From positions 99,392 to 163,391 of the forward strand of contig JAQWRT010000015.1 of assembly GCA_029243605.1 (NCBI GenBank): a DNA stretch of 64,000 bases, given 5' to 3'. Made by a program: the position numbers and the translations under genes. Below the pieces are notes generated by a model, which was not told the origin of the DNA, did not search any database, and saw only the letters and a list, made by a program, of their open reading frames with translations. This document shows, piece after piece, positions 1,559 to 17,402 of this stretch (position 1 is its first letter; each line of letters opens with the position of its first letter). The DNA comes from Myxococcota bacterium (GTDB lineage: Bacteria; Myxococcota_A; UBA9160; UBA4427).

Positions 1559-2743
1559 TTGCCCCTCGATCCGCAAGTTCTCTTTCGCGCGCTGCTCGGT
1601 GCGGGAATCACCGGCCTTGCCGGCGTTCCTTGCTCCATCCTCAACCATCTGACGCTTGAGGCCGAAGCATCGACGGAGATCGATTATATCCCGGCCTCGG
1701 TCGAAGGTGAGGCGGTCTCCGCCGCCGCGGGTATGTGGCTCGGGGGTGGGCTGGGCGCCGCAATGATGCAGAACTCCGGGCTGGGGAACGCGGTGAACCC
1801 GTTGGCTTCTCTCTCGGTCCCCTATGAGATTCCCGTGCTGATGATCGTCTCCTGGCGGGGCGAGCCGGGTAAGAAGGATGCGGTTCACCACTATCCCATG
1901 GGAGCGGCGACTCCGGGCCTCTTCGAGTTGCTCGATATTCCGGCGACGGTGCTTCGCGAAGAGACAGATCTGGATTCCGCGGTCAAAGATGCGGTGGCTT
2001 ATATGCGTAAGGAGCGTCGCCCTGCGGCGCTGATTGTTCCGCGCGGCCTCTTTCAGAAGCCTTCCGCCGACGGGGATGGCGAAGGGACTCGCCGGGCGGC
2101 TCCGATCCTGGCCCGGGAAGTCATTTCCGAGGCCCCTCGGGCTCGGGCGTTCGGCGGCGGGGAGTTGCCGAGTCGAACCGAAGTCCTGGGTGCCTGGCTG
2201 GAGCGTTACCCCGAGGCCCTTGCGGTTTCGACTACCGGCTTCATGTCCCGAGAGGTTTCCTCACACGGGATGGTGGACCGACATTTTCCCATGCAGGGTT
2301 CCATGGGCTTTGCCTCGGCCATCGCTCTGGGGCTCGAGCGCAGCGCGCCCGGCGGCCGACCCGTCCACGTCCTCGACGGAGACGGAGCGCTGATCATGCG
2401 TCTGGGCAGCCTCGCCACCATCGGCGCTCTGGCCCCCCGGGCCTTTACCCACGTGGTGGTCGATAATGGAACCTACGCCTCCACCGGAGGCCAGCTTACA
2501 GTTTCGCCCCATGTGGACTTTCCTGCTGCGGCCCTGGCCTGTGGCTACCGGGCAGCGGCTCACTGTCGCGGAGTCGGTGGTCTCGCGGAAGCGCTGGAGT
2601 GGGCCGGGAGCGAGGCCGGGCAAGGTCCTGTTCTGCTCCAGATTGCGGTGGACGAGCGGGAAGCCGAAGGCCTCGAGCGGCCGGCGCTTTCGCCCCAGGA
2701 GATCGCGTTGGCCTTTCGGGATGCCGTGGCAGGTCGGGGTTGA
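1559..2743 (+). CDS. ppd: Phosphonopyruvate decarboxylase (thiamine-diphosphate dependent)
   Basis: TTG start 8 nt after GGAGG (1546-1550). Ppd-type N-terminus GITGLAGVPCSIL and a TPP-binding region LDGDGALIMRLGSLATIG..VVVDNGTYASTGGQ. It sits immediately downstream of pepM, the canonical pairing. Confidence 0.85.
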   Translation: MPLDPQVLFRALLGAGITGLAGVPCSILNHLTLEAEASTEIDYIPASVEGEAVSAAAGMWLGGGLGAAMMQNSGLGNAVNPLASLSVPYEIPVLMIVSWRGEPGKKDAVHHYPMGAATPGLFELLDIPATVLREETDLDSAVKDAVAYMRKERRPAALIVPRGLFQKPSADGDGEGTRRAAPILAREVISEAPRARAFGGGELPSRTEVLGAWLERYPEALAVSTTGFMSREVSSHGMVDRHFPMQGSMGFASAIALGLERSAPGGRPVHVLDGDGALIMRLGSLATIGALAPRAFTHVVVDNGTYASTGGQLTVSPHVDFPAAALACGYRAAAHCRGVGGLAEALEWAGSEAGQGPVLLQIAVDEREAEGLERPALSPQEIALAFRDAVAGRG

Positions 2744-3504
2744 TGACCGACCGACCGAAAGCGGCGGTGATCTTGGCGGCGGGTATGGGAACGCGGCTTA
2801 AGAATGTTTTCTCGGATCGCCCCAAGGGCTTCGTGGAAATCGGCGGAGAGGGGTTGATCCATCGCTCGGTTCGCTTGCTCCAGGAAAGGGGCATCGAGCG
2901 GATCGTCATTGTTTCTGGCCATATGGGGTCGGCTTACGAAGCCCTGGCCGCCGAGCTTCCTGGTTTGGAGGTGGTTGAGAACGCTGAGTTCGCCACCACC
3001 GGCAGCATGGCGTCGCTGGCCCGTGCCCTCGAAGCCGTGAATGAAGATTTCCTTCTCCTCGAGAGCGACCTCTTCTACGAAGAGCGTGCCCTGGATGTCC
3101 TCTTGGAGGACGAAGCGCCCGATATCCTCCTGGCCTCAGGTCCTACCGGTGCCACCGATGAGGTCTGGATTGAAGCCTCCTCCGGCTGCCTTCAGAGCAT
3201 GTCCAAGGATCCCGCCGAACTCGGCGAGGTCTACGGAGAACTCGTGGGCATCGTTCGTATTTCGCATGCCCTGGCTCGGGAGATGGTCAGAGCCTATGAG
3301 CGCTTTGTCGAGGAAAACGGCCATGGCCAGATGGCGTATGAGACCGACGCCCTGGTCGAAGCCGCGGGCCAGCGCCCGGTGGCTCTACGCCTGGTTCCCG
3401 ACCTGCTCTGGGGCGAAGTCGACTACGAACACCACTACCTCCGGGTCCGAGATGAGGTGTGGCCCCGCTGGGCTTCCGGCCGGGCTGCCGATCATTCGTC
3501 ATAG
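2743..3504 (+). CDS. LicC/PntC-like nucleotidyltransferase (putative phosphonate or phosphoalcohol cytidylyltransferase)
   Basis: The ATG at 2743 overlaps the ppd stop (TGATG at 2741-2745). Nucleotide-binding loop AVILAAGMGTRL, followed by DRPKGFVEIGG and a C-terminal WGEVDYEHHY. The 48 upstream codons of track ORF 2599..3504 overlap ppd and are Arg/Gly-rich shadow. Confidence 0.8.
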   Translation: MTDRPKAAVILAAGMGTRLKNVFSDRPKGFVEIGGEGLIHRSVRLLQERGIERIVIVSGHMGSAYEALAAELPGLEVVENAEFATTGSMASLARALEAVNEDFLLLESDLFYEERALDVLLEDEAPDILLASGPTGATDEVWIEASSGCLQSMSKDPAELGEVYGELVGIVRISHALAREMVRAYERFVEENGHGQMAYETDALVEAAGQRPVALRLVPDLLWGEVDYEHHYLRVRDEVWPRWASGRAADHSS

Positions 3505-3554
3505 CCCTCGAGCCGCGAACTCGGCGCGCAAAATTTAGTTCACAGGAGAAAAGC

Positions 3555-4670
3555 ATGGATATGCCCAAGCGAAACGTCTTGCTCAACCCAGGCCCGGCGA
3601 CGACCACCGATTCGGTGAAGGCGGCTCTGGTGATCTCCGATATCTGTCCCCGGGAGCGCAGTTTTTGCGATCTCTATTCCGATGTTCGAAAGCGCCTTGC
3701 GGCCCTGGCGGGTGATCCCGACCAGGTGGTTGCGATTCCCGTAGTGGGCAGTGGGACCACAGTGCTCGAGGCGGGTCTGGTTAGCCTGATCCCTTCGGGT
3801 GGCCGGGTGCTGATTCTCGACAACGGAGACTATGGGACACGCTTGGCGGCAATCGCGGCCGCCCACGGCATCGACCACCGGCGCGTAGAATTGGGATGGG
3901 GGCAGCGGATCGATTTTGAGGCCCTCGATGCCGTACTCGCCGAAGAGCAGGGGAGGGCGACCCACCTCTTCGCCATCCATCACGAAACGAGCTCGGGCCT
4001 CCTCAATCCCTTGGACGCCCTGGTGGAGAGAGCCCACGCTCACGGTCTCAAATTGATGCTCGATGCCATGTCGAGTTTTGCGGCGATGCCCATCGAGGTG
4101 GGTGAACACGCGGTGGACATGCTCTTCTCGAGCTCAAATAAGTGTGTCCAGGGGATGGCGGGGCTGGGCATTGCCATCACCACCCGGGCGCTGCTCGACG
4201 AGGTTCGCCCGACGCCTCGGCGCTGCTACGTGTTGGACCTGGTGGCCGAGCACGATCATCTCGAGAAGACGGGCCAGAGCCGCTTTACCGTTCCTCCCCA
4301 GGTGGTATCGGCGCTTCATCAGGCGCTCGTCGAACTCGAGGCAGAAGGGATCCCCGCGCGCCAGAAGCGCTATCAGGAGAGTATGCAGACCCTGATGGCG
4401 GGGCTGGCTGAACTGGGCTTTGAATTCCTGCTCGAGGACGAGGACCAGAGCGAGATTCTGGTGGCTATCCACGAGCCGAGCGGGGACTGGTACGATTTTG
4501 ATCGCATGCACGATGCTCTCGATGCCGAGGGCTTCACCATCTATCCCGGCAAGCCCGGAGCCCAGCCGACCTTCCGGTTGGCGGTGCTGGGGGCCATCGA
4601 TGCCCGAGATATCGAGAACTTTCTTGCCGCCCTGGGTCGCTACCTCGAAGGCGTGAAGGGAAGCGCCTGA
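3555..4670 (+). CDS. phnW: 2-aminoethylphosphonate:pyruvate aminotransferase (class V aminotransferase)
   Basis: AGGAGA (3544-3549) lies 5 nt upstream of the ATG at 3555. N-terminus NVLLNPGPATT and PLP-lysine region SSSNKCVQG are typical of PhnW/AepZ. Operon context with pepM and ppd. Confidence 0.85.
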   Translation: MDMPKRNVLLNPGPATTTDSVKAALVISDICPRERSFCDLYSDVRKRLAALAGDPDQVVAIPVVGSGTTVLEAGLVSLIPSGGRVLILDNGDYGTRLAAIAAAHGIDHRRVELGWGQRIDFEALDAVLAEEQGRATHLFAIHHETSSGLLNPLDALVERAHAHGLKLMLDAMSSFAAMPIEVGEHAVDMLFSSSNKCVQGMAGLGIAITTRALLDEVRPTPRRCYVLDLVAEHDHLEKTGQSRFTVPPQVVSALHQALVELEAEGIPARQKRYQESMQTLMAGLAELGFEFLLEDEDQSEILVAIHEPSGDWYDFDRMHDALDAEGFTIYPGKPGAQPTFRLAVLGAIDARDIENFLAALGRYLEGVKGSA

Positions 4671-4671
4671 T

Positions 4672-5586
4672 TTGAAGCAGGAGATCGCGCTTCGCTTGCT
4701 TCTGACCCTCGGCGCCATCTTCGCGGTGGCCGGGGCTTGGGTGCTGGGCCAGTGGGCCGTGCGGGGTCGGACAGCTTCCCAATCCCGAATGGGGACGCGC
4801 TTCCTTGTGGAAGTCGGCATCCTGGCCGGAGTCTGGGGCCCGGCTTATTTGGGTGGCGGCTGGCTCTTGGCGGGAGTTCTAGTCCTCGCCTGGCTCTGCA
4901 CGCGGGAACTCTACGCCACCCTGAAGGTCGGCGGGGAGCGTCCGTGGGCCGGGGTGGGGGTCGCCGTGACGCTCGGCGCGATTCTTTTCGTTTACCAGTC
5001 GCCGGATGCCGCCGGCTGGCTCTTTCCCGTGGCTCTCGGGCTCTATGGGGCGCTGCGCTGGATCGTTTCCTCCCGCCAGGCCGCCCCCGACTCGCCCCTG
5101 GCCCGGGTGACCAGCACGGGACTCGGCTTTGTCTACCCCGGCTTGTGCCTCGCCGTCTTTCTTTCTCTTGGGCTGCGGGAAGAGGGCTTCGGCTATGCGA
5201 TCTTCTTCTACGGCCTGGTCGAGGCCAATGACGTCTTCGCCTACCTCGTGGGAAGCGGGATCGGCAAGCGGAAAATTTTTCCGGTGTTGAGTCCCAATAA
5301 AACCCTGGAAGGCGTTGTGGGTGGGCTCTTGGGGACCGTGGCTGTGGGCTTCGCTTTTTCCTTCGCTGTGCCCGATTTTGGCCCGTTGCGCGTCGCGAGC
5401 GCAGCGCTTCTGATCGGTTTGGCAGGGCTCGGGGGTGATCTTTTTGCCTCGGCGCTCAAGCGACGTGCCGGGGTCAAGGACTACGGCAACCTGGTCCCTA
5501 CTCAGGGCGGCGTGCTGGACGTTTACGACGCATTCTTCTTCGTAACCCCGGTCTTTTACGGTTTCCTAGAACTCACCTCGGGTTGA
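4672..5586 (+). CDS. CdsA-family (CTP_transf_1) integral membrane cytidylyltransferase-like protein, divergent signature
   Basis: TTG start 1 nt after the phnW stop. Multi-pass hydrophobic protein. Family region SPNKTLEGVVGG...GDLFASALKRRAGVKDYGNLVPTQGGVLDVYD resembles the CdsA signature, but it has Q for the usual H and V for the usual R (signature recalled from memory). Confidence 0.75.
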   Translation: MKQEIALRLLLTLGAIFAVAGAWVLGQWAVRGRTASQSRMGTRFLVEVGILAGVWGPAYLGGGWLLAGVLVLAWLCTRELYATLKVGGERPWAGVGVAVTLGAILFVYQSPDAAGWLFPVALGLYGALRWIVSSRQAAPDSPLARVTSTGLGFVYPGLCLAVFLSLGLREEGFGYAIFFYGLVEANDVFAYLVGSGIGKRKIFPVLSPNKTLEGVVGGLLGTVAVGFAFSFAVPDFGPLRVASAALLIGLAGLGGDLFASALKRRAGVKDYGNLVPTQGGVLDVYDAFFFVTPVFYGFLELTSG

Positions 5587-5623
5587 TCCGAGGGTGATAG
5601 GCTGGGGGAGGAGGGGTAGCCCC

Positions 5624-6373
5624 GTGCGATACACACTCGCCGACGTGAAGGCGTCCTACGGACCCGAGAAGGCCTGGGCCGAGATGCAGGGTGATCTGCC
5701 CTGCTATCTCATCTATCGCCCGATTTCCTTTTGGGTGGCTTTGCCCTTTCTCTGGTTGGGGATCCCCGTGCTCGTGATGACGAGCTTCTCTCTGGTGATC
5801 GCGCTCAGCCTTCCTGCCATGGCCTATTGGGGGGGAGAGCACGCCTATCTCGGGGTGGCGGGCCTGGGCTTCCTCTATCACGTCATGGACTGTGTGGATG
5901 GCAACATGGCGCGCACCCTGGGCCGCACGAGCCGCCTGGGCGCGATTCTCGACGGGACCATCGATATGAGCTTTTGGTGCCTGCTCTTGCTCTCGCTTGG
6001 ACTCCTTGTGGACGGTCAGGCCGGGGGGTTCTGGGACGGTCACGCCGTCGCGCTCTCCCTGGGGCTCGCAGTGCTCTTGCTCCTCAATCGCCAGACGCGC
6101 GACAATTTCAGCCTGCAAAATCGAGATGCCACGTATTTTCGCAGTGAGATTCCCGAGCGGCTCAGCCTCGGCGATCGCCTCATGATGGCGGTGGTCGGCC
6201 TCGAGTTCGTCTACGTCTTTGCCATAGCCCTGGGCGGGTGGTTCGGAGGGCTGGAGTGGGTTCTGCTCGGCATTGCGATCTACGTCGGCCTGATGTTCCT
6301 CGGGGCCGTCGGGCTCACATGGATTCAGGCGGCTCGTCTGGATCGGGATCCCCCGCCGCAAGATCCTCGTTGA
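5624..6373 (+). CDS. CDP-alcohol phosphatidyltransferase family protein
   Basis: Intact family motif D-x2-D-G-x2-A-R-x8-G-x3-D-x3-D (DCVDGNMARTLGRTSRLGAILDGTID) and several TM segments. I prefer the GTG at 5624, about 7 nt after a GGGGAGGAGGGG run, over the track start at 5594. Confidence 0.8.
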   Translation: MRYTLADVKASYGPEKAWAEMQGDLPCYLIYRPISFWVALPFLWLGIPVLVMTSFSLVIALSLPAMAYWGGEHAYLGVAGLGFLYHVMDCVDGNMARTLGRTSRLGAILDGTIDMSFWCLLLLSLGLLVDGQAGGFWDGHAVALSLGLAVLLLLNRQTRDNFSLQNRDATYFRSEIPERLSLGDRLMMAVVGLEFVYVFAIALGGWFGGLEWVLLGIAIYVGLMFLGAVGLTWIQAARLDRDPPPQDPR

Positions 6374-7904
6374 GCGAGCGGAACCAAGTTCGGTTTCGCT
6401 TGTAGTAGTCCAGAAAACTTTGGTAGCGGCTGTCGTAGAGTTCACGGTTCCCGGGGTTGGGCTCGAAGGTATCCGTGACTTCGACGAGATCGCTCATGGC
6501 GTCGAGTTGGTCGATTTCGCCCAGGGCGCGTAGGGCGATCAGTGCAGCGCCGCGAACCCCGCAGAATTGCGGGTTGGCCACCCGCTCGACCCTTTTGCCG
6601 AGGACATCGGCCATGATCTGGCACCAGATATCGCTTTGGGCGCCGCCGCCGGTGATTCGAACGCTGGGGACCGGGGCTCGGAGAAGTTTCTCCACGACGC
6701 CCAGGGCCCACAGGTTGTTGTACGCAACGCCCTCGAAGACCGCGCGCAGCAGGTGTCCCCGGTCGTGATCGAGAGAGAGATTGACGAACCCGCCGCGCAC
6801 GGTGGCATCGTCGACCGGGACGCGTTCGCCCATGAGCCAAGGGAAGAAGAACACGCCCCCCGCACCCGCCTCGCAGGTTTCGACCAGGTGGTTGATGGTG
6901 TCGTAGTCCGTCTCGCTGCCGAGGATTTTCTTGCGCACCCATTCCATCGAGGCACCGGCTGTCTCCTGGGTGGCAATTAGGATGTACTTGCCATATTCCG
7001 CCGCGCAAAGGGTGCCCGTGGCCGCGAAGGGATTGACGGCTCGGTCGTCGAGGTGGGTCGCGACCCACGAACTGGTGCCGAGGTAGATATGCACGTCTCC
7101 ATCCTTGACGGCCCCCGAACCTACGGCGCACGAGGGGACGTCGCCGGCGCCGGCAATCACGGGAACGCCCGGGGGCAAGCCGAGATCCGAGGCGGCCTCG
7201 GCACCGAGGTCACCGACAATCTCGGTGGAGGGCAGGACTTCGGGGAAGCGGTCGGTGTCGAGATCCAGCATGCGAAGAATCTCGGCCGACCAGCCGAGTT
7301 CTCCCTTGCGAGTCTTGAAGAGCCACCCACCGCTGGCCAGATCGTAGGTGGTCGTGGACCGCCCGGTGCAGCGCATGACGAGGTAGTCCTTGACGTCGAG
7401 CAGGCAATCGGTCTGCTCCCACAACTCGGGCCTTTCGTCGCGTAGCCATATAAACTTGGAAATCGTGTCGCGTCCGGCCAGGCTGGGCACGCCATTGGTG
7501 GCGCGTAGCCACTTGATGAGTCGGGGGAGTCCGTAGCCTGCGACCCGGGGCTGCCCCGAGGTTATCTCCCGGGCCTGTTCTCGGGAGCGCGTGTCCAGCC
7601 AGATCATGGCGTTCATGAGGGGCTTGCCCGCGGAGTCCACGGGCAGAACCCCGAACATCTGGCACGAGAAGACGACGGCGGAGACCTGAGCCGGGTCGAA
7701 GCTGGATTGGCTCCAGAGTTCCCGGGCGGCGGAAGAGATTGCGCTCCACCACGCGTAGGGGTCCTGTTCGGCCCATCCCGCCTCGGGGTAGATCACCTCG
7801 AGGCTGCTGCGGGCGCAGTCGCGGATCTCGCCCGTATGAGAAACCAGGGCGACCTTGATTTCGGACGTGCCCACATCGATCGCCAGGACATTTTGTTCGC
7901 TCAT
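6315..7904 (-). CDS. FGGY-family carbohydrate kinase (xylulokinase/glycerol-kinase-like)
   Basis: The ATG at 7904 gives MSEQNVLAIDVGTSEIKVALV, the FGGY N-terminal phosphate-binding motif. C-terminal motif ITGGGAQSDIWCQIMADVLG. The 80 extra codons of the track ORF (to 8144) run into devA and look like shadow sequence. Confidence 0.85.
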   Translation of the reverse strand: MSEQNVLAIDVGTSEIKVALVSHTGEIRDCARSSLEVIYPEAGWAEQDPYAWWSAISSAARELWSQSSFDPAQVSAVVFSCQMFGVLPVDSAGKPLMNAMIWLDTRSREQAREITSGQPRVAGYGLPRLIKWLRATNGVPSLAGRDTISKFIWLRDERPELWEQTDCLLDVKDYLVMRCTGRSTTTYDLASGGWLFKTRKGELGWSAEILRMLDLDTDRFPEVLPSTEIVGDLGAEAASDLGLPPGVPVIAGAGDVPSCAVGSGAVKDGDVHIYLGTSSWVATHLDDRAVNPFAATGTLCAAEYGKYILIATQETAGASMEWVRKKILGSETDYDTINHLVETCEAGAGGVFFFPWLMGERVPVDDATVRGGFVNLSLDHDRGHLLRAVFEGVAYNNLWALGVVEKLLRAPVPSVRITGGGAQSDIWCQIMADVLGKRVERVANPQFCGVRGAALIALRALGEIDQLDAMSDLVEVTDTFEPNPGNRELYDSRYQSFLDYYKRNRTWFRSLNEDLAAGDPDPDEPPESM

Positions 7905-8025
7905 TGACTGAAAATTCCCTCGCCCATTCGCCGGCCCGGCCTCGCGCGACATCCCAGGACTTTGACCGTAGCCGAGGGGTCGATGCAGGGAAACGGTGGG
8001 GTGCCGGGTCGTGATTCGCCAGATC

Positions 8026-8727
8026 TCATTCGGAGAGCCGCACGTCTGAGTCCAGTTGACCATCGACGAGATTGATGAGTCGGTCCGCCGACTCAAAAAC
8101 TCGGGCATCCTGGGTGACCATGAGTACGGTGGTGCCTCGCTCATGGGCGAGCTCAGCGAGTAACCCGAGAACGATCTCGGTGTTTTCCCCGTCGAGGGCC
8201 GCCGTGGGTTCGTCGGCGAGGACCAGGGCCGGGCGGTGTACCAGGGCTCGGGCGATGGCGACTCTCTGCCTTTGGCCGCCGGAGAGTTGGTGGGGGCGAT
8301 AGTCGAGCCGTTCCCCCAGGCCGAGCTGGGTCAGCAGCGCACGAATGCGGTCGTCCATTTGGTCGGCGGCTTCGGGGTGAAGGTCTCCAGCCATCTGGAC
8401 GCTCTGAAAGGCCGTGAGTGCAGGGAAGAGGTTGTGGAGCTGAAAGATGAAGCCGAGTTGCTGGCGATAGCTTTCGAGTCCCGGGCTCTCGAGGGTATTG
8501 AGGTCGTGACCCAGGACATTCAGTTGTCCGCCCTGGGGCCGGCGCAGGGCACCCACCAAGGAGAGCAGGGTTGTCTTACCCGAGCCCGAAGGCCCCGTCA
8601 TGATCGCGAACTCACCGGGTTCGAGAGAGAGATCAATCTCGAAGAGAACCTGCTTGGCGGTTTCGCCCGTTCCGAACGAGTAGTCCAGCCCTGCGATTTC
8701 AATGGCCTTGTTCGCTGCGGAAGTCAT
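8026..8727 (-). CDS. ABC exporter ATP-binding subunit, DevA-like
   Basis: Walker A GPSGSGKTT, ABC signature LSGGQRQRVAIARAL, Walker B LVLADEPTAALD. The ATG at 8727 has a GGAG about 6 nt upstream. Operon context with DevC/DevB-like genes. Confidence 0.9.
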   Translation of the reverse strand: MTSAANKAIEIAGLDYSFGTGETAKQVLFEIDLSLEPGEFAIMTGPSGSGKTTLLSLVGALRRPQGGQLNVLGHDLNTLESPGLESYRQQLGFIFQLHNLFPALTAFQSVQMAGDLHPEAADQMDDRIRALLTQLGLGERLDYRPHQLSGGQRQRVAIARALVHRPALVLADEPTAALDGENTEIVLGLLAELAHERGTTVLMVTQDARVFESADRLINLVDGQLDSDVRLSE

Positions 8728-8803
8728 GGAAGCTCCAGGCGCTCGCTTGATCGAAAATTCTCGAGTTGAGGATACATTCGTTTCGCCCGGGCTTCCTCCC
8801 GGC

Positions 8804-9943
8804 TTAGAAGAGTTCAGCAGGCTCAAGATTGCGGACTTTGCGCAGGGCGAGGGTTCCGGCCAACGTGCACATGCTGACGGCGAGGAGACCCACATTGAGA
8901 GCATCGCCCAAGCTTATGCCCGCTGGGAGCCCACTGCTCCAGCCAAGGACTGCCAGCATGAACGACCCCAGGACGAGAGAAGGCACGAAGCCCAGGGCGG
9001 AAAGCAGCACGGACTCGACCATGACGACGAATTGGATGTAGCTATCTCCGTAGCCCATGGCCTTGAGCGTGGCGAATTCGGCGAGGTGGTCGAGGACTTC
9101 GGTGTAGAGAATCTGATAACAGATGACGACTCCGACCGCGAAGCCGAGGGCAACGCCGACGAGCAAGATGACACTAATGGGGGTGCCCGTGCGCCAATAG
9201 TCGAGGTCGCGGTCGATCAGTTGGGCTTTCGAGAAAGCTCGCACATCGCCGGGAAGTGTGAGAGCGAGATTTTCGAGGACCCGATTCATTTCGGCGCCAG
9301 GCTTGAGCCTGAGTAGGGCAATTTCGATCCAGTCAGGGCTCTGGCGTGTCAGCTCGAAAAAGGTTTCGTCCGAGACAAGAAGGCTGCCATCGACTTCGAA
9401 ATCCGTGCCCAAGGGAAAGCTGCCGACGATTTCGATTTCCCGGAGGCTCACCTGGGCGATGCCATCGGGTAATTTGCCGTAGGAATCCCGGGCGTGGGAG
9501 TCCAGAAATGCCGTTCCGATGCGATTGAGCTTGTCGACGTTTTCGTTTACCTCGTCGATGAGAAAGGTGGGCTCCCTGGGATTGAAGCCGATCACCCGAA
9601 TCGGGTGCAGGGTCTCCTCCTCGAGATTCTTCCACTGTTCGAGAGCGATCCAGAGAGGGGAAGCGCTTTCGACCCCCTCGACGGAAAGGGCCTGATAGAG
9701 CCTCTCCTTGTGCATTCTGTTTCGGGCAAGGAAGGGGTCCTTCTCCTTGTTGATGACGAGGATATCCGCATCGACTTCGCGCAGGAGCTGGATCGCGCTG
9801 TCCAAAAGTGCGTTTCGAAAACCGATTTGGAGCAGCATCAGGAGCAGGGCGAATGTGACTCCGCCCACTGAGGCGATGAGGCGCCCTCGCTCGTGCATCA
9901 GGAGCCTGAACGAAAAAACGACTGCCCTCATGAGTTTGAGCAT
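8804..9943 (-). CDS. ABC exporter permease, DevC/FtsX-like (paralog 2)
   Basis: N-terminal TM (RLIASVGGVTFALLLMLLQIGF), a large periplasmic region, and a C-terminal FtsX-type TM bundle. Its start shares one nt with the stop of the upstream permease (TGATG on the minus strand at 9945-9941). Confidence 0.85.
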   Translation of the reverse strand: MLKLMRAVVFSFRLLMHERGRLIASVGGVTFALLLMLLQIGFRNALLDSAIQLLREVDADILVINKEKDPFLARNRMHKERLYQALSVEGVESASPLWIALEQWKNLEEETLHPIRVIGFNPREPTFLIDEVNENVDKLNRIGTAFLDSHARDSYGKLPDGIAQVSLREIEIVGSFPLGTDFEVDGSLLVSDETFFELTRQSPDWIEIALLRLKPGAEMNRVLENLALTLPGDVRAFSKAQLIDRDLDYWRTGTPISVILLVGVALGFAVGVVICYQILYTEVLDHLAEFATLKAMGYGDSYIQFVVMVESVLLSALGFVPSLVLGSFMLAVLGWSSGLPAGISLGDALNVGLLAVSMCTLAGTLALRKVRNLEPAELF

Positions 9944-11127
9944 CAGAAGAGCTCCGCCGGGTCAGCTCGCTGGAGCCGGCGAGCCGAGATCAGCGCCGAC
10001 AGGGAACACATGATGAGGCTGAGAGCCAGAATGCCCAGTACCAAGCTTGGCGTCATGTAGATCGGGAGATCCGTAATGTCCTGGATCAGGGGGAAGGCGA
10101 CGAGGCTGAGGAAAAGAGCCGGGCCAAATCCGAGCAGGGCGTAGATCCAGGCCTGTTCGATGATGTAGCGAATTAACTGTTTTTGGGAATAACCCATGGC
10201 GCGGAGTGTGGCGTAGAGGGGGAGGTGATTGCGAATATCGGTGGAGAGAATCTGGAAGAGCACGACCAACCCCACGAGGAACCCGGCCAGGGTACCCATT
10301 CCAAAGATGTCACCGACGGCGGTGTTCTCCACCCAGTGCTGAGTTTGCAGATCGTTCAGTTCGCTTTGGGTGATGACACGGACGTCCTTGGGAAGAGTCT
10401 GCTTGAGGGCCTCGGCGACCTGGTCGACATCGCTGCCCGGTGCGAGGCGAACCAATCCGAGATGGGGTGAGTCCAGGGGGTGGTTGGCGAAGAAGCGGGA
10501 GAATGTGTCGTCGCTCATAAGCATGGCGCCGGCGGCGAGGAAACCGACGCCGAGTTTGAAGTCGCCGACGACCTGGGCGCTCTGGTTGCGCACTTCGACC
10601 TTGCCGTCGGGATCTCGGGGGCCGCATTTATCGCGGGTCATTCGATCGAGGAGGACGGTGCTGGTGGGTTTCAGGGCCTCTAATTGCTCGGTCACCCCGG
10701 GCAGGATCAACGGCGAAGTGTCCGTGTCCGCGGCGATGGGGAAGCCGATGGCAAAGAGCCGACAGTTGGCACCGTTGACCGGGTCTCGCCAATTCGCGTA
10801 GCGAAAGTAGACGGGGGTCGTCCCGATGACTTCGGGTTGGGTTTGGGCCTGGTAGAGGCGGCTGGCGGGGATCGTGCCCGTGGCCCCCAGATAGGCGAAG
10901 CGCGGTGAGATCAAGACGATGTCGGCGTCGAAGCGGCCCGAAACAGCGAGCGCCGTATTCAGCACTGCACCGTAGAAGCCGAGTTGGACGAACATGACCA
11001 GGATTGCGAAGCCGATGCCGGCGGCGGCCACCGCGGTACGGGTCTTCTTGTGCGACACCAGTTGGATGGAGAAGGGGACCGGTCGCGAGGGGCCGCTCCG
11101 TCGTGTGTACGCGGATACGGGGCTCAA
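9943..11127 (-). CDS. ABC exporter permease, DevC/FtsX-like (paralog 1)
   Basis: Same architecture as the neighbouring permease (TAVAAAGIGFAILVMFVQLGF ... C-terminal FtsX-type TMs, ending PAELF like its paralog). The TTG start overlaps the devB-like stop (TTGA). Confidence 0.85.
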   Translation of the reverse strand: MSPVSAYTRRSGPSRPVPFSIQLVSHKKTRTAVAAAGIGFAILVMFVQLGFYGAVLNTALAVSGRFDADIVLISPRFAYLGATGTIPASRLYQAQTQPEVIGTTPVYFRYANWRDPVNGANCRLFAIGFPIAADTDTSPLILPGVTEQLEALKPTSTVLLDRMTRDKCGPRDPDGKVEVRNQSAQVVGDFKLGVGFLAAGAMLMSDDTFSRFFANHPLDSPHLGLVRLAPGSDVDQVAEALKQTLPKDVRVITQSELNDLQTQHWVENTAVGDIFGMGTLAGFLVGLVVLFQILSTDIRNHLPLYATLRAMGYSQKQLIRYIIEQAWIYALLGFGPALFLSLVAFPLIQDITDLPIYMTPSLVLGILALSLIMCSLSALISARRLQRADPAELF

Positions 11128-12146
11128 GGCTCTTCGGCTGGCCCCAGGTGAATACGGAGCTGACCCTCGAGGTTGGTCATCCTTTCGGCCAACTCGTTCT
11201 TCTCGAGGAGAACCCGTACCTGGACGATGCGCAGCCCCCGAGGCGCGGTGGGGTCCTCGCCGGTCACGCTATTGCTGAAGATCATTTCGCCCACCGAAGA
11301 GACGCTCCCCTCCAAGGAGTCGGGCAATGCGGGGCTCGTGAAGGTTGCCTTCTGGCCCACTTCCACCAACCGGATTTCGTTGGCATGCACCTCGGCGACG
11401 GCCACCATGTTGTTCGTGTCCCCGATGCTCAGCACCGGGTTCATGTCGACGCGCTCGCCCTGCTTCATCAGGATCCGTAGGACACGGCCGGCGATGGGCG
11501 ACTTGATCATGGTGCTTCCCATGCGCGACTCGGCCTGGGTGACCTGGTTTTGGGCTTCCCGAAGGACGAGGTCCACGTTGGCGGTTTTCCGTTCGAGGAG
11601 GGCGCGGGCTTCGTGGAGATGCTCCTCGGCCCGCCGTACCTGGAGCTGGGCGTCCCGGAACTCCTTCCCCGCGCTAAAACCTTTGCGGCTCAGCCCCTCC
11701 TGGCTCGTGACCTCCTCCCGGGCGTAGGCGAGTTCGGCTTCGATGGCGCGGACTCGGGCGAGTTGGGCGTCCACCTCCAGGGGTTCGAGGCGCGCGCGCT
11801 CCAAGTCGATACGTGCGGCCTCGAGTTCGGCGGCGCGGAGCGGGTAGCTTCCGAGCAAGACGAGTACCTGGTCGGTGAGGACATGACTCCCCTCCTGGAC
11901 GAGGATCTGCTGGATCACGTCGTTGGAAGCGGCGGCGACGTTCACGACCCGACTCGAGGGCTCCAGGCGAGCGAGGGAAACCAGGCTCGTACGCTCGGGT
12001 GTTGTTGAGGCCGGCGCTTTGGTCGCCGGGGACGGGGCGGGTTCGGCCAGAGACTCGCCGCAGCCCACCGTCCCAAGGGCCCAGAGGCCGATCGTGGCGA
12101 GCACGAGGGCCGCTTTCCGAATCTGGGTGTTGTCGGGCGTAGGCAT
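11124..12146 (-). CDS. HlyD/DevB-family periplasmic adaptor (membrane fusion) lipoprotein
   Basis: Signal peptide with lipobox-type cysteine (LWALGTVGC). Long coiled-coil-like Ala/Glu/Arg/Leu region, then a beta-barrel C-terminus typical of membrane fusion proteins. First gene of the exporter operon. Confidence 0.85.
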   Translation of the reverse strand: MPTPDNTQIRKAALVLATIGLWALGTVGCGESLAEPAPSPATKAPASTTPERTSLVSLARLEPSSRVVNVAAASNDVIQQILVQEGSHVLTDQVLVLLGSYPLRAAELEAARIDLERARLEPLEVDAQLARVRAIEAELAYAREEVTSQEGLSRKGFSAGKEFRDAQLQVRRAEEHLHEARALLERKTANVDLVLREAQNQVTQAESRMGSTMIKSPIAGRVLRILMKQGERVDMNPVLSIGDTNNMVAVAEVHANEIRLVEVGQKATFTSPALPDSLEGSVSSVGEMIFSNSVTGEDPTAPRGLRIVQVRVLLEKNELAERMTNLEGQLRIHLGPAEEP

Positions 12147-12316: not shown

Positions 12317-12343
12317 AAAAAGAGGCTCTCAGGGCGCCCTGAG
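12317..12343 (-). terminator. Possible intrinsic terminator after the amidohydrolase gene
   Basis: The minus-strand RNA reads CUCAGGGCGCCCUGAG (perfect 16-nt palindrome, 12328-12343, containing the stop codon), followed by AGCCUCUUUUUCCCC. The stem must open to form a loop and the U-tract is short. Confidence 0.3.
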
Positions 12344-13789
12344 GGGCTCTAGAGCCGACTCAGTTCGTCCCCAAACTCGTTTTCCGTCGATCCACACGGC
12401 GCTCAGGTCCTTGGCGTCCAGGCGCAGCCGAGCCTGGCGCCAGGGGCGATCGAGGAGCATCAGGTCGGCGGGCTGTCCGGCGGCCAGGGGGCCGCGCGGC
12501 TGGCCCGGTGCCTCGAGCGGCGAGGTGAAGAGGCCGAGAGCCTGCTCGGGGGTCAAAGCCTCTTCCTCGACGCGCATGCCGGCTCCCCCGGCCGAGCGCC
12601 GCTCCACCGCGGCCCGCATGGCCGCCCAGGGATCGCACGCGCCGAAGGGGGCATCGGTGCCTCCGCCCAGGGGCACCTGGGCCTCGATGAAACCCCGGCC
12701 GCGGTAGAGCCAGGGTTGGTCGTGCCGGGGAACCTCTCGGCGGTAGACGTCCCCTCTTTCGAGCAAGAAATTCGGTTGGGTCACCACGGTGACCCCGAGC
12801 CTCGCGAGCCATTCCACGATATCCGGGGGCGCCAGGCTGGCGTGCTCGATGCGGTCGCCGGGCCCGCCCCCGGCGCTCTCGAGGGCGGCGGCGGCCATCA
12901 CGATTTCGGCTCGGGTAACGCAGTGAAAAGCCACCCGGCGCCGGTCGCGGTGGGCCTGGCGAATTTTGTCGACGAGGGCGTGCTCTTCGGGGAGGTGGTC
13001 CTCGTCGAGCATCACCTTCAGTTCGCCGCAGTGCATGGAGGGCGTTCGGTGCAAGGGCAGGCTCGGGTCCCCCATCACCCGGAGTCGCTGGGGCAATTCC
13101 CCCGAGACCTTCGCCGCGGCCAGGAGCGCCCAGGCCTCCGGGCCGTTGCTGGGGGTGGCGTCGCAGACGCCGGTCACTCCGAGACGGGCGAGTTCGGCGC
13201 CCACTTCGCCCAGACCGGGAGGGCTGGCGGAACCCATGCGCTCGCGCAGCCAGGGGTCGGCCCGGCGCAAACGGCCCTGGGCCCGGTCTTCGGCGTCCGG
13301 GTCTTTCGCCGTTTTCCCGGGGCCCTCGGTCCCCAGGTCCAGGGCGGCGAGGCCCTTGGAATTGACGAACCAGAAGACGCCGCTTCGGTGCTGTATGCGA
13401 ACCGGGACGTCATCCACCATCGAATCGATACGATGGCGATCGAGGGGGCCGGCGACGCTCTCGTGGTAACCGACGCCGCGCACCCAGCGGGCGCTTCCCT
13501 CGGCTTCGCGAGCTTGGGAAGCGGCCTTTTTCAAAGCCGTCTCCAATTCGGATGCGTTGCCCACCGTCGGGGGGCCGCAGGCCACCGAGTCCCGGGCGGC
13601 GGCGAGGGCGAGCAGATGGATATGGTGGTCGTGGAGGCCGGGCAGCAGGGCGCCGGCTCGGGCATCCAGGCGTGCCTCGCCGGACTCGGGCCCGAGCGTC
13701 GGGCCCAGGTCGGCGATGCGTCCGTCGCGGATGCGCAGGGCTGCCCGGGCGCCATTGATCTCCGCGTTCTCGATGAGGAGCGGGGTCAT
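12329..13789 (-). CDS. Metal-dependent amidohydrolase (YtcJ-like, amidohydrolase family 3)
   Basis: The ATG at 13789 gives MTPLLIENAEING.., with HxH metal site LPGLHDHHIHLL. The 136 upstream codons of the track ORF are Arg/Pro/Gly shadow over the upstream gene. The start overlaps the upstream stop (ATGA). Confidence 0.8.
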   Translation of the reverse strand: MTPLLIENAEINGARAALRIRDGRIADLGPTLGPESGEARLDARAGALLPGLHDHHIHLLALAAARDSVACGPPTVGNASELETALKKAASQAREAEGSARWVRGVGYHESVAGPLDRHRIDSMVDDVPVRIQHRSGVFWFVNSKGLAALDLGTEGPGKTAKDPDAEDRAQGRLRRADPWLRERMGSASPPGLGEVGAELARLGVTGVCDATPSNGPEAWALLAAAKVSGELPQRLRVMGDPSLPLHRTPSMHCGELKVMLDEDHLPEEHALVDKIRQAHRDRRRVAFHCVTRAEIVMAAAALESAGGGPGDRIEHASLAPPDIVEWLARLGVTVVTQPNFLLERGDVYRREVPRHDQPWLYRGRGFIEAQVPLGGGTDAPFGACDPWAAMRAAVERRSAGGAGMRVEEEALTPEQALGLFTSPLEAPGQPRGPLAAGQPADLMLLDRPWRQARLRLDAKDLSAVWIDGKRVWGRTESALEPLRAP

Positions 13790-15186
13790 GAGCGGGTGCC
13801 GGGCTGGGTTGGTTGGGCCACGGCGGCGAGCAGGCGGGCGGTATCGGCGCCAAGGGCAGCGGCTGGACCCCGGCTCTCTCGGGCCCGGGGCGGCGCCACA
13901 GCCTCGACCCCGGTTGCGGTGAGCACCTGCCAACCCCGGTGGTGGGCGGCGATTTCGACCCCGGTCTCGGGGCCGGCCGCGGCCAGGGCGTGCCGGGTGA
14001 CCGCCGAGAGGGAGACGTCGAGCAGGGCTCCCCGGCCCCGCCGGTGGTGGGCGAGAGAGGCGACCGCAGCATGAAGGCCTGTGAGCGGATCCGCGATGGC
14101 GTCCCCGCAGAAAGAGGGAGGAGCGCTGTCCCCGTACCGGATGGCCGCGCCCGCACCCACCGCAGCGTCGTCTCCGAAGCCGACCCAGTGACCGCATTCG
14201 CCTTGGCGCCCGTGCCCGGTGATGGAGAGCCAGACGCGACCCGAACCTCCGCCGACCAGATCCTCGGCGGAGATTCCGAGTTGAGCCAGGGCCCGGGGGC
14301 GAGCGCTTTCCACCACGATCTCAGCCCACTCGAGAAGCCGGTGGAATTCGGCCATGCCCGGGCGCGAGTCGAGGTCGAGGACCACGCTTTGTTTGCCCGC
14401 GTTCATGAGGTCGTAGAAGCCGGTTTCACCCCGCCGGGCCCCATCGGGGCGCCCCCGGCTTTCGAGCTTGATGACGTCGGCGCCCGCTGCGGCGAGGAGT
14501 TGGGCGCAGAGCGGGCCGGCCCAGAGCGAGGAAAGATCGAGCACCCGGGGCGAGGTCGAAGCCGGTCCGGGGCGGGGGGTGCCGGGGCCGATTCGAAGCC
14601 ACGGCTCCGGGGCCGGGGATGGCGCGGGGGCGGGCAGGGCGGCCAGGGCCAGTCCCAAAAGGCGCCCCCGGTTGACCCAGGCCTCGGTTGTTCGCTGGGG
14701 GAGCACCCGCTCGGCGAATGCCCACGGGTCTTCTCCAGGCTGCGGGGTGCGCTCGAGCCAGGCCGGCAGGAGTTCCCGATCGTCCGAACGCGGTAGGTTG
14801 ACGGCCAGCCAGCCGTCCCGAGCGGCGAGCAGACGGCAGCCACCCCCCGGTGCGATGGGTCCCCGGCGGGTGAGGTTCATGCGCGCTGCCCGTTCGCCGA
14901 GCAGGGCGGGGCCGTCGAGGCGGGCGAGGTCGGGGCTCTCCGGGGCCAGGGACGCCAGGGCCAGGGCCGCGCCCCGGGCGGCCAGGGCCAGGGGCCCCGG
15001 CGACAAGGCCGGCGGGCCGGCCGCCGGGCCCGTCAGAGACATGGCTCCCGAGCGAGCCCATTCGGCCGCGGGAGAGAGTCCGGGGTCGAGCGCCGAGCTT
15101 TTGGGCAGGGGGGCCGGGGCCACTCCGCAGTCGGCCAACAGGTCTCGGGCGTAGTCCGAGGCTGAGGGGGTGAGGGGGGCGGGCAT
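13786..15186 (-). CDS. Family III (CaiB/BaiF) CoA-transferase-like protein with an extra N-terminal ~200-aa region
   Basis: The canonical N-terminal CaiB motif occurs only at about residue 215 (VLDLSSLWAGPLCAQLLAAAGADVIKLE). It is followed by ITGHGRQG and a complete domain. The preceding region resembles the middle/small-domain part of the same family. Confidence 0.75.
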   Translation of the reverse strand: MPAPLTPSASDYARDLLADCGVAPAPLPKSSALDPGLSPAAEWARSGAMSLTGPAAGPPALSPGPLALAARGAALALASLAPESPDLARLDGPALLGERAARMNLTRRGPIAPGGGCRLLAARDGWLAVNLPRSDDRELLPAWLERTPQPGEDPWAFAERVLPQRTTEAWVNRGRLLGLALAALPAPAPSPAPEPWLRIGPGTPRPGPASTSPRVLDLSSLWAGPLCAQLLAAAGADVIKLESRGRPDGARRGETGFYDLMNAGKQSVVLDLDSRPGMAEFHRLLEWAEIVVESARPRALAQLGISAEDLVGGGSGRVWLSITGHGRQGECGHWVGFGDDAAVGAGAAIRYGDSAPPSFCGDAIADPLTGLHAAVASLAHHRRGRGALLDVSLSAVTRHALAAAGPETGVEIAAHHRGWQVLTATGVEAVAPPRARESRGPAAALGADTARLLAAVAQPTQPGTRS

Positions 15187-15530
15187 GCTTTGGGCTCCGG
15201 TGCGATCGGGTGCCGGACCGACGGCGTCGGATTTCGCTCGTCGGGCGGGGCCCTGCCGGGACAGAACTTCAGCCGGGCTGCAAGGACCCCAGGACCCGGG
15301 AAGACAAGGCTAACATCCGCCGCCCATTGCGGCTATTTTCCCGACCCCGCTCGATGCGGTGGCGCTTTCGGTGGCGTAGGCCTCGTTGCTCTTAATCCAG
15401 CGGCGGGCAGGTCCCCAAGCGGGATCGGTGCGGAGAGGCCGCACGGATCGCGAGCCAGGAGATGCCCCGGCCAAGGAGCCGGGGGAGCGAAGAACCCGGA
15501 TTCGTTCGGGCAAGACGAAAGGGAGAAAAT

Positions 15531-15896: not shown

Positions 15897-17402
15897 ATGA
15901 ATTTGATGATGTTGTTGGAGATGGCCGCCGAGGGGATGGGCGACCGGGTGGCCGTGGTGAGCGGCGACGTTCGATTGACCTACGGCGAGCTCTTCGAGGC
16001 CTCGGGCCGGGCGGCTGCCCGCTTGCGGGCGAGCGAGCTCGATCACCTCGCGATTCTCGATACGAGTAGCCCAGCCCTACCCGTGGCGGTTTTTGCCGCG
16101 GCCTGGGCGGGCAAGCCCTTCGTCCCGCTCAACTATCGCCTGACGGGCGACGAACTCGACCGCTTGCTCGAGCAGATCCTGCCGGGGCAACTCATCACCG
16201 ACGCCGACCGAGTGGACAGCCTGGCCGGTCGCTCGGGCCTCGAAGTGATCGGACGGGGTGATTACCTGGCCAGCGCTCGTGCTAAGGATGCCGAGTCTTT
16301 GGAACGCGAGTGGTCCATGGACCCCGATGAAATCGCGATCCTACTCTTCACCAGCGGGACAACGGGTCCGCCCAAGGCGGCGGTGATCCGTCACAAGCAC
16401 CTGGTCAGCTATATCCTGATGTCGGTGGAGTTTATGTCCGCCGACGAAAATGATGCCGCCCTGGTTTGTGTCCCGCCCTACCATATTGCCGGGATGGCGG
16501 CGATCGCCAGCTCGGTCTACGCGGGCCGTCGCATCGTTCAGTTGCCGAATTTTACGCCCGAGGCCTGGCTCGAATTGGCTCGTAAGGAGCAGGTCACCAA
16601 CGCCTTCGTGGTGCCGACCATGCTGGCCCGGATCGTCGAGTTGCTCGAGGGTGAGGGAAGCGCCGATCTCCCGCACCTGCGCGCGCTGTCCTATGGCGGC
16701 GGCAAGATGCCCCAGTCGGTGATCGAGCGGGCACTGGAACTCTTCCCGGAAACGAATTTTGCCAACGCCTATGGGTTGACGGAAACGAGCTCGACGATTT
16801 CGATTCTCGGTCCCGAGGATCACCGCGCCGCCATCGTCAGCGACGATCCCAAGGTGCGTCGCCGCCTGGTCTCGGTGGGGCAGCCCCTGCCGGCCATCGA
16901 GGTCGAAATTCGCGACGATGAGGGCAATGCTCTCGGAGCCAATGAGCGTGGAGAGATCTACGTGCGGGGGGAACAGGTCTCCGGCGAATACCTAGGGAAG
17001 GGCAGCCAGGTTCAGGAAGACGGGTTTTTCCCCACTCGGGACGGTGGCTCCCTGGATGAGGACGGATATCTCTTCATCGAGGGCCGAATCGACGACATCA
17101 TCGTTCGCGGGGGTGAGAATATTTCTCCCGGCGAGATCGAGGATGTCCTGCTCAAACACGAAGCCATCGCCGACGCCGCTGTGGTCGGACTCCCGGACGA
17201 GCAATGGGGCGAGAAGGTCGTGGCTGCGGTGGTCTACAAGGCGGGCGATTCGGCCTCTGAGGCCGAACTTCAGCAATGGGTGAAGGATCGCTTGCGTTCG
17301 TCGCGAACCCCCGAGAGCTTCGATTTCTGGCCTGAGTTGCCGTATAACGAGACGGGTAAATTGCTGCGCCGGACGGTGCGCTCCCGGCTGATGGCCGGGT
17401 GA
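15897..17402 (+). CDS. Acyl-CoA synthetase (AMP-forming, ANL superfamily)
   Basis: AMP-binding motifs LLFTSGTTGPPKAAV, YGLTETSS, and DGYLFIEGRIDDIIVRGGENISPGEIE. Confidence 0.9.
   Translation: MNLMMLLEMAAEGMGDRVAVVSGDVRLTYGELFEASGRAAARLRASELDHLAILDTSSPALPVAVFAAAWAGKPFVPLNYRLTGDELDRLLEQILPGQLITDADRVDSLAGRSGLEVIGRGDYLASARAKDAESLEREWSMDPDEIAILLFTSGTTGPPKAAVIRHKHLVSYILMSVEFMSADENDAALVCVPPYHIAGMAAIASSVYAGRRIVQLPNFTPEAWLELARKEQVTNAFVVPTMLARIVELLEGEGSADLPHLRALSYGGGKMPQSVIERALELFPETNFANAYGLTETSSTISILGPEDHRAAIVSDDPKVRRRLVSVGQPLPAIEVEIRDDEGNALGANERGEIYVRGEQVSGEYLGKGSQVQEDGFFPTRDGGSLDEDGYLFIEGRIDDIIVRGGENISPGEIEDVLLKHEAIADAAVVGLPDEQWGEKVVAAVVYKAGDSASEAELQQWVKDRLRSSRTPESFDFWPELPYNETGKLLRRTVRSRLMAG

Follow-up and report, generated by a model that had tools for sequence, protein, structure and literature searches.

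Five genes on the minus strand of a Myxococcota metagenome-assembled genome (MAG), at positions 6315–12146 of the 64,000-nucleotide stretch of contig JAQWRT010000015.1 analyzed here (the window), follow one another in the order DevB, DevC1, DevC2, DevA and FGGY kinase. They are read, with moderate confidence, as a DevBCA-type tripartite ATP-binding cassette (ABC) exporter of type VII (MacB fold) together with a head-group kinase, the pump being the dedicated exporter of the amphiphilic product of the adjoining pathway. That pathway is encoded by a convergent plus-strand operon, which combines genes for 2-aminoethylphosphonate (AEP) synthesis, beginning with pepM, with genes for two lipid-type membrane enzymes.

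The pump operon

The five genes lie where a preliminary description of this stretch had placed them, and the identities given there were right: the DevB, DevC and DevA models and the two FGGY domains agree with them. DevB (11124–12146, 340 residues) is a membrane-fusion, or periplasmic adaptor, protein with the Pfam domains HlyD_D23 and HlyD_3, and scores 170.7 bits against TIGR02971 (cutoff 129). Its N-terminus has a single hydrophobic segment ending in a lipobox-like LGTVGC, and the protein is probably a lipoprotein. DevC1 (9943–11127, 394 residues from a TTG start) and DevC2 (8804–9943, 379 residues) are FtsX/MacB-type permease paralogs. DevC2 exceeds the TIGR01185 cutoff of 290.35 bits (316.8 bits) and is 100% identical to an NCBI protein annotated as "ABC transporter permease DevC [Myxococcota bacterium]". 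DevC1, with the Pfam domains FtsX and MacB_PCD, matches all 380 of the 380 profile positions at 283.4 bits; one gene caller prefers a 371-residue version of it. The ATPase DevA (8026–8727, 233 residues) scores 287.0 bits against TIGR02982 (cutoff 295.8), with LolD as the runner-up model about 96 bits lower (190.7 bits), and has intact Walker A (GPSGSGKT), LSGGQ and Walker B (LVLADE) motifs. These three TIGRFAM models had been proposed as a check; DevB and DevC2 clear their cutoffs, and DevC1 and DevA come in slightly under. The FGGY-family kinase (6315–7904, 529 residues, FGGY_N and FGGY_C domains) is the last gene of the pump operon here. These gene-level identities are already public annotation, in which the system as a whole is undescribed.

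The DevB/DevC1 junction reads CCTTGAGCC, where the TTG start of DevC1 shares four nucleotides with the TGA stop of DevB. DevC1 and DevC2 overlap by one nucleotide (TGATG), and gaps of 76 and 121 nucleotides separate DevC2 from DevA and DevA from FGGY. The TTGA and TGATG overlaps and both gaps are as first described, but the overlapping junctions number two, not three. The longest open reading frames (ORFs) of DevA (292 residues) and FGGY (609 residues) are too long at the start; independent gene calls back the 233-residue DevA, on two independent contigs, and the 529-residue FGGY. The order B-C1-C2-A agrees with devB-devC-devA, and is found in about 75 related loci.

Paired permeases

Over their full length, DevC1 and DevC2 share 32% identity. 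Hydropathy gives each of them four transmembrane (TM) segments and a periplasmic loop of about 215–225 residues (about 225 in DevC1). Sequence searches of solved structures with DevC1 and DevC2 returned essentially no matches, and fold comparison was used instead. In Foldseek, the AlphaFold (AF2) model of DevC2 (pLDDT 85) matched LolE (best), MacB, Spr0695, HrtB, YbbP and BceB with E-values of 1e-14 to 1e-8; those for LolE, MacB, Spr0695 and HrtB were 1e-14 to 1e-12, at a sequence identity to LolE of only about 14%. The predicted fold places DevC2 in the type VII (MacB-fold) class of ABC systems, with four TM helices and a large periplasmic domain between TM1 and TM2.

Species-representative genomes were scanned with a DevC2 alignment, which yielded 80 loci (L numbers denote related loci). 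Wherever two DevC genes adjoin, the upstream copy is DevC1-like and the downstream copy DevC2-like by score (75 of 75 loci). These loci span Myxococcota-like MAGs, many Planctomycetota, one Vicinamibacteria MAG and Victivallis; an exception to the pairing is L014, which has a single DevC2-like gene. Because the C1-then-C2 order holds in all 75 loci across several phyla, the duplication can be taken as old and its order as fixed. A fixed order is the pattern expected of an obligate LolCE-like heterodimer, and points to that stoichiometry here. The reviews consulted on the type VII class list LolCE as the sole heterodimeric example. The heterodimeric permease that the presence of two paralogs had first suggested is thus supported both by the gene order and by the LolE/MacB-like predicted fold. 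Four orphan DevC1-DevC2 pairs, 55–63% identical to the pair of the window, were also found (L006:8682–11140, L009:1–1669, L010:8859–11137 and L016:8859–11137).

Linkage of the pump to kinase and lipid genes

Thirteen proteins of the window and seven accessory proteins were compared with all fetched loci. For the linkage, 19 loci were assessed that have a complete DevB-C(-C)-A set and a DevC2 identity of 46% or more; they come from distinct species-level genomes and metagenomes. The FGGY gene is adjacent in 17 of them; 16 have a CdsA-like gene, about 15 a CDP-alcohol transferase gene and 13 pepM. The association of pump, kinase and lipid genes is kept through at least four different gene arrangements. 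In L014, L082 and L084, FGGY ends the biosynthetic operon and the "long" CDP-alcohol transferase gene, which in the window belongs to the facing operon, heads the pump operon; this gene is also part of the pump operon in L011 and L099. The order in L011 is MsbA-like ABC, CDP-alcohol transferase, DevB, C1, C2 and A. L099, which has a GC content of 47.7% and belongs to another lineage, has one plus-strand run of HlyD, FtsX, FtsX, ABC, CDP-alcohol transferase, family 4 glycosyltransferase (GT4), outer-membrane efflux protein (OEP), short-chain dehydrogenase/reductase (SDR) and CdsA-like genes. This run faces FGGY and a phosphatidylinositol phosphate (PIP)-synthase-like transferase gene, and a gene for myo-inositol-phosphate synthase (MIPS) adjoins. 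Searches starting from FGGY homologs (48–52% identity) lead back to the pump, and searches starting from the long CDP-alcohol transferase find the same cluster (L094–L096). Co-occurrence beyond this locus, which had been proposed as a test, is thus found in about 19 loci and at least four arrangements.

L076, L086 and L099 lack the genes pepM, ppd and AEP transaminase; the phosphonate is therefore seen as a lineage-specific add-on. A second, "short" CDP-alcohol transferase of the cluster matches PIP/archaetidylinositol-phosphate synthase models with 87–132 bits, below their cutoffs. The deepest conserved module consists of the FGGY kinase, this short PIP-synthase-like transferase, a CdsA-like enzyme and a lipid-type ABC exporter. 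The preliminary description had left a choice between export of the phosphonate lipid and export of a glyco- or phospholipid made with the kinase. We infer the substrate and the direction of transport, and favor the second wording, as the kinase, the PIP-synthase-like transferase and the CdsA-like enzyme are the oldest and tightest partners, not pepM.

Several observations weigh against dedicated lipid export. A single broad high-GC clade accounts for most of the linked loci, and part of the linkage may be inherited synteny: in about 11 loci the synteny extends to the CoA-transferase and amidohydrolase genes upstream of devB, which look unrelated. Lipid genes are missing from the surroundings of about 60 Planctomycete DevB-C1-C2-A operons; the pump family is therefore not intrinsically a lipid exporter, and its cargo would be set by context. 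The four orphan permease pairs have no DevB, DevA, kinase or lipid genes within at most 10 kb on each side, and within less at contig ends (L009 begins inside the pair). With pepM absent from three loci, the phosphonate cannot be a universal recognition element, and L002, L005 and L029 have no long CDP-alcohol transferase. DevC1 and DevA fall just under the trusted cutoffs of their models, and searches of the window, as far as they went, yielded neither an MsbA-like nor an OEP gene. FGGY kinases are known to act on soluble sugars; an FGGY enzyme with a documented part in making lipid head groups is not known to us. The loci all come from uncultured MAGs.

Alternatively, the pump could serve general efflux of drugs, peptides or toxins in the manner of MacAB, its lipid neighborhood being gene order inherited in one clade. 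Some Anabaena DevBCA paralogs are drug pumps (PMC8277102), and both the Planctomycete operons and the syntenic CoA-transferase and amidohydrolase genes, which have no obvious functional link to the pump, would suit such a role. Against it, genes have been swapped between the two operons across the four or more arrangements while the linkage persists, the linkage is also found in the 47.7% GC lineage with its single-operon layout, and searches anchored on the kinase or on the transferase find the pump independently. The survival of the linkage through rearrangement is considered decisive, and general efflux is judged unlikely.

The facing phosphonate and lipid operon

The plus-strand operon has the order pepM, ppd, nucleoside triphosphate (NTP) transferase, AEP transaminase, CdsA-like gene and CDP-alcohol transferase. 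PepM (1–1516) is a phosphoenolpyruvate mutase fused to an NTP-transferase domain (Pfam PEP_mutase and NTP_transf_3; TIGR02320, 275.6 bits). Its 5' end is cut by the window edge: about 37 codons are missing, the frame is open from base 2, the TIGR02320 match starts at profile position 62, and the homolog in L091 has 541 residues. The phosphonopyruvate decarboxylase Ppd (1559–2743; TIGR03297, 330.9 bits, cutoff 312.5) is followed by a stand-alone NTP (cytidylyl) transferase of the PntC/IMPCT-like type (2743–3504), which scores 61.7 bits against NTP_transf_3 and 57 bits against the model of inositol-1-phosphate cytidylyltransferase (IPCT/DIPPS). This protein is retained at 58% identity in L086, where pepM is lacking. 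Next comes the AEP aminotransferase (3555–4670; TIGR03301, 377.9 bits, cutoff 360.8).

The two membrane enzymes are encoded at the end of the operon. The CdsA-like CTP_transf_1 protein (4672–5586, 304 residues; PF01148, 167.9 bits) is a divergent relative of phosphatidate cytidylyltransferase that reaches only 75 bits against the canonical CdsA model (cutoff 385). The long CDP-alcohol phosphatidyltransferase-family enzyme (5594–6373, a 259-residue ORF; PF01066, 30.5 bits) probably starts at 5624, which makes it 249 residues long. Its DxxDGxxARx8Gx3Dx3D motif (D89, D92, G93, A96, R97, G106, D110 and D114) is invariant in 14 homologs. The family is narrow, with 58 detectable homologs that are all at least 46% identical, none of them from Burkholderia. 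Distant relatives of the enzyme occur in pepM/ppd clusters devoid of the pump (L103, L120, L125 and L127). This context fits transfer of CMP-activated AEP, as proposed for the Group 1 phosphonolipid clusters (PMC8942020). With Ppd and the AEP transaminase over their cutoffs and lipid-type enzymes adjoining, the operon can be regarded as a genuine AEP pathway with lipid-type enzymes, and the original statement that the pump operon faces a putative lipid-head-group pathway holds.

The FGGY kinase and CDP-alcohol transferase genes overlap tail to tail by 59 nucleotides (6315–6373), and the same overlap is seen in L091. With this overlap, terminators have no place between the two convergent operons.

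The product of this pathway might also not be a lipid. The pump would then export from the periplasm a phosphonate or polyol-phosphate glycan or capsule, or a soluble phosphodiester such as di-myo-inositol phosphate. A GT4 gene is conserved in the cluster, and L086, L088 and L099 contain Stealth and Wzy_C genes; CDP-alcohol transferases of the DIPPS type give soluble products, and it is the IPCT/DIPPS model that the NTP transferase matches. Polar periplasmic cargo, for example pyoverdine and enterotoxin, is exported by pumps of the MacB type (PMC5985334), and phosphonoglycans are the presumed product of about half of pepM clusters (PMC8942020). On the other side stand the lipid-specific CdsA-like enzyme in 16 of the 19 loci and the use of CDP-diacylglycerol by PIP-synthase-like transferases. 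The architecture also agrees with predicted Group 1 phosphonolipid clusters (PMC8942020), and Wzx, Wza and polysaccharide export genes are not conserved in the cluster. A non-lipid cargo is considered doubtful, and an amphiphilic product is preferred.

The FGGY kinase

The best NCBIfam model for the kinase is XylB (TIGR01312), with 344.9 bits and a cutoff of 380.25, and its nearest structures are xylulokinase, gluconate kinase and glycerol kinase. A plain xylulokinase was rejected, as the protein stays under the XylB cutoff and homologs down to 41–45% identity sit in lipid clusters, not in xylose catabolism. An archaeal homolog with 48% identity, outside lipid clusters, goes against that pattern. 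It is located in an Asgard (Promethearchaeota) MAG (L089:8001–11222), with neither pump nor CDP-alcohol transferase as neighbors, two genes from a myo-inositol-1-phosphate synthase gene. Homologs with 44–45% identity are found in operons of FGGY, PIP-synthase-like and MsbA-like genes that face a CdsA-like gene. Near such distant operons, L088 (12920–15060) and L090 (15954–17545) have a gene resembling BioF/serine palmitoyltransferase together with an SDR gene, and a sphingolipid backbone is a possibility in these lineages.

The kinase is presumed to supply the phosphorylated alcohol for the PIP-synthase-like transferase. This is the simplest reading by analogy, since PIP synthases and PgsA couple CDP-diacylglycerol to a phosphorylated alcohol (PMC9246714; also established family knowledge). 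What the alcohol is, in which order the steps run and how the final lipid is built are likewise proposals.

Outer-membrane channel and accessory genes

The preliminary description had stated that no outer-membrane channel gene is adjacent. In the window this stands: tblastn with two OEP proteins from related loci detected no OEP/TolC gene, and none was present among the approximately 35 larger ORFs scanned against Pfam, which are not all the ORFs. A flippase resembling MsbA was likewise not found by tblastn with proteins from related loci, nor among the larger ORFs scanned against Pfam (not every ORF). The statement does not extend to the cluster of close relatives, to which an OEP gene belongs. 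In L091 and L092 (95% FGGY identity), and likewise in L094, the cluster goes on past pepM with GT4, short CDP-alcohol transferase and OEP genes, the last about 5 kb away, where the cluster ends. OEP genes were found inside the extended cluster in at least eight loci (L091/L092, L094, L076, L014, L011, L015, L082 and L099). As the window begins inside pepM and a 95%-identical relative has the three genes there, GT4, the short CDP-alcohol transferase and OEP are expected just to the left of the window, and a TolC-family gene is probably located just beyond this edge.

In the pump operons of L014 and L082, a gene for a sulfatase-family membrane protein precedes that of the CDP-alcohol transferase. 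It is the first gene of the operon (L014:5503–8034 and L082:14346–15941), and the protein has the size and layout of LtaS/EptA. These genes hint that the lipid head group may pass to another envelope acceptor. DevC1C2-DevA might then be an FtsEX/BceAB-like mechanotransducer, not a transporter, which activates or feeds a periplasmic enzyme, for example an LtaS/EptA-like sulfatase-family transferase moving the head group from the lipid to another target in the envelope. The type VII ABC systems do include the non-transporting FtsEX (PMC8277102). Set against this, a membrane-fusion protein is always co-encoded, the OEP channels are encoded in the cluster in at least eight loci, and the sulfatase gene occurs in only these two of the compared loci; in the window, neither tblastn with both proteins nor the domains of the Pfam-scanned ORFs revealed one. 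A purely mechanotransducing role is regarded as very unlikely, and transport through the pump is retained.

Comparison with known systems

Among the closest known systems is DevBCA-HgdD of Anabaena sp. PCC 7120, which exports heterocyst glycolipids (PMC8277102, PMC5985334). Both systems have the same three protein families in the order B-C-A, with the ATPase as a separate polypeptide. In Anabaena a TolC-family partner is encoded away from the pump genes, as the probable partner would be here, and the cargo proposed for the pump would likewise be an envelope (glyco)lipid from neighboring genes. They differ in the permease, with two DevC paralogs here and a single, homodimeric DevC in Anabaena, and in DevB, which is lipoprotein-like here and has an N-terminal cytoplasmic tail in Anabaena. 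The host here is a non-cyanobacterial Myxococcota MAG, in which DevC1 and DevA stay just under the trusted cutoffs. The neighbors also differ: kinase, CDP-alcohol transferase and phosphonate genes here, polyketide-type hgl genes in Anabaena.

LolCDE is likewise a type VII system; it has the heterodimeric permease of two paralogs and the homodimeric ATPase that are proposed here, and LolE is the best structural match of the DevC2 model. Unlike the system proposed here, LolCDE hands its cargo to the soluble chaperone LolA, without membrane-fusion protein or TolC partner. The window genes do not belong to this family: DevA scores 190.7 bits against the LolD model (cutoff 307.75), no LolC or LolE model matches, and a membrane-fusion protein is co-encoded. 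MacAB-TolC shares the MacB-fold permease and would also share the hexameric adaptor, the TolC-type duct and mechanotransmission acting on cargo from the periplasmic side. MacB, however, forms homodimers, carries its ATPase as a fused N-terminal domain, transports macrolides, enterotoxin and protoporphyrin, and has no biosynthetic neighbors. In its mechanism the pump looks like a hybrid of the two, with the heterodimeric extractor of LolCDE and the adaptor and duct of MacAB-TolC.

The biosynthetic genes resemble the Group 1 phosphonolipid clusters ("Burkholderiales_CDP-OH"; Yu et al. 2013, as summarized by Li & Horsman 2022, PMC8942020), with a PIP-synthase-like branch added. Common to both, going by that summary, are a Ppm-PntC fusion, Ppd, AEP transaminase, a second PntC and two phospholipid-type genes. 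The alpha-ketoglutarate/Fe(II) oxygenase of Group 1, which gives 1-hydroxy-AEP, was not found between pepM and the CDP-alcohol transferase gene in the window, and the CDP-alcohol transferase here is of the narrow family with none of its 58 homologs from Burkholderia. As far as the summary goes, no DevBCA pump or FGGY kinase is described for the Group 1 clusters, and their product, too, was never characterized.

The branch in question resembles the bacterial PIP synthase pathways (Mycobacterium PgsA1/PimA and Bacteroides BT_1522-1526; PMC9246714). The short CDP-alcohol transferase matches the PIP/archaetidylinositol-phosphate synthase models, a GT4 enzyme with MshA/PimA-like similarity follows it, and a MIPS gene is located beside the L099 cluster. 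All scores are under the curated cutoffs, though, and those pathways have no known dedicated exporter. The conserved partner here is the FGGY kinase, not MIPS, so the alcohol phosphate may not be inositol phosphate.

In Caulobacter, a dedicated extractor ABC system is encoded in a sphingolipid locus with an IMPCT-like cytidylyltransferase for head-group activation (bioRxiv 10.64898/2026.04.12.717747; PMC12275187). This locus for an anionic sphingolipid (cytidylyltransferase CpgD; extractor LptF2/G2/C2) is alike in concept, with a special outer-membrane lipid, IMPCT-like activation of the head group and an extractor-type ABC system among the biosynthetic genes. The transporter is a type VI LptFG instead of a type VII DevC, the lipid backbone is another and there is no phosphonate. 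Export as proposed for the window would parallel that of glycolipids by DevBCA-HgdD and echo the Caulobacter extractor locus. Full-text literature searches found no report that ties DevBCA/FtsX pumps, FGGY and pepM/phosphonolipids together.

Proposed pathway

In the proposed pathway, the FGGY kinase would phosphorylate a small polyol or sugar, and the CdsA-like enzyme would produce a CDP-activated lipid at the cytoplasmic face of the inner membrane. The PIP-synthase-like CDP-alcohol transferase would couple the two, and the GT4 glycosyltransferase may attach a sugar. In the lineage of the window, PepM, Ppd and the AEP transaminase would make AEP, which the PntC-type cytidylyltransferases would activate to CMP-AEP and the long CDP-alcohol transferase would put onto the lipid. 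The lipid would be flipped to the periplasmic leaflet, possibly by the MsbA-like ABC protein found in the clusters of some relatives. In the exporter, two DevA ATPases would drive a heterodimeric DevC1-DevC2 permease, which the lipoprotein adaptor DevB would join to a TolC-family channel. DevC1C2 would extract the lipid from the periplasmic leaflet by ATP-driven mechanotransmission, and DevB and the OEP channel would conduct it to the outer membrane or the cell surface.

In its fullest form, the proposal is tentative. It holds that the cluster is an undescribed, self-contained module of approximately 18 kb, in which a polyol-phosphate (glyco)glycerolipid is built from the FGGY kinase onward, capped with AEP in marine Myxococcota-like bacteria, and delivered to the surface by heterodimeric DevC1C2 with DevA, DevB and the outer-membrane factor.

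Neighboring genes and related loci

An Amidohydro_3 gene and a CoA-transferase family III gene are located directly upstream of devB on the same strand (12329–15186), followed by divergent AMP-binding and enoyl-CoA hydratase genes (15897–18460). This stretch is syntenic in relatives with the arrangement of the window and absent from the rearranged clusters. The GC content upstream of devB is 70–72%, and 60% over devC2. A terminator-like hairpin with a T-run (12328–12343, minus strand) is located at the end of the amidohydrolase gene, 182 nucleotides before devB; it comes from a consensus scan with 11 sites where 7.3 were expected, and weakly suggests that devB begins its own transcription unit. 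The CoA-transferase and amidohydrolase genes were discarded as core members of the pump operon, given their synteny in the window-type arrangement only and the hairpin before devB. Further on are two large autotransporter genes (19760–22897 and 29829–33119), the first with a beta-domain and PATR repeats. Between them are a second CoA-transferase III gene (two domains, 802 residues), an AMP-binding ligase gene and two SDR genes. Rfam and tRNA scans found no RNA genes in the window.

In Planctomycetota (L017–L081, for example L069:2197–3354, L043:3763–4116 and L077:4483–4938), DevB-DevC1-DevC2-DevA forms a stand-alone four-gene unit, the DevA of which has a C-terminal cyclic-nucleotide-binding domain; L099:8182–9294 is grouped with these cases. 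Genes for STAS and HATPase_c_2 (partner-switching) proteins recur 4–6 kb upstream of the units. These features suggest a nucleotide-regulated pump.

In L015, a Vicinamibacteria MAG (3490–7848 and 12470–15285), DevB-C1-C2-A is flanked by genes for OEP, a LicD-family protein, an NTP-transferase/aminotransferase fusion, an Eis-like acetyltransferase and a beta-ketoacyl synthase. These genes would represent a different head-group chemistry beside the same pump. A PhnY*-like PhyH gene is present in L082, L084 and L086. Three MAGs with DevC2 identities of 55–68% are labeled "uncultured Spirochaetaceae bacterium": L005 has the whole cluster, L012 the pump and kinase, and L006 two DevC genes only. These labels may be wrong. 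The titles of several carrier MAGs suggest ocean surveys (ALOHA, TMED, MED and ANT).

Implications

The DevB-DevC1-DevC2-DevA system with its obligate-looking heterodimeric permease appears to be widespread in Myxococcota-like and Planctomycetota genomes. According to Li & Horsman (2022, PMC8942020), pepM occurs in about 5% of bacterial genomes, roughly half of the clusters concerned are thought to serve decoration of the cell surface, and the large predicted phosphonolipid cluster families have no characterized product. The locus offers a candidate exporter, a candidate first committed enzyme in the FGGY kinase, and a minimal gene set, which in the L099 arrangement is nearly one operon. If the reading as an 18-kb module is true, it would give the FGGY kinase family its first lipid role, extend lipid-dedicated tripartite type VII exporters beyond cyanobacteria for the first time, and be the first route of transport proposed for a phosphonolipid of any bacterium. 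Exposed at the surface, such a lipid could offer C-P compounds one way into marine dissolved organic matter.

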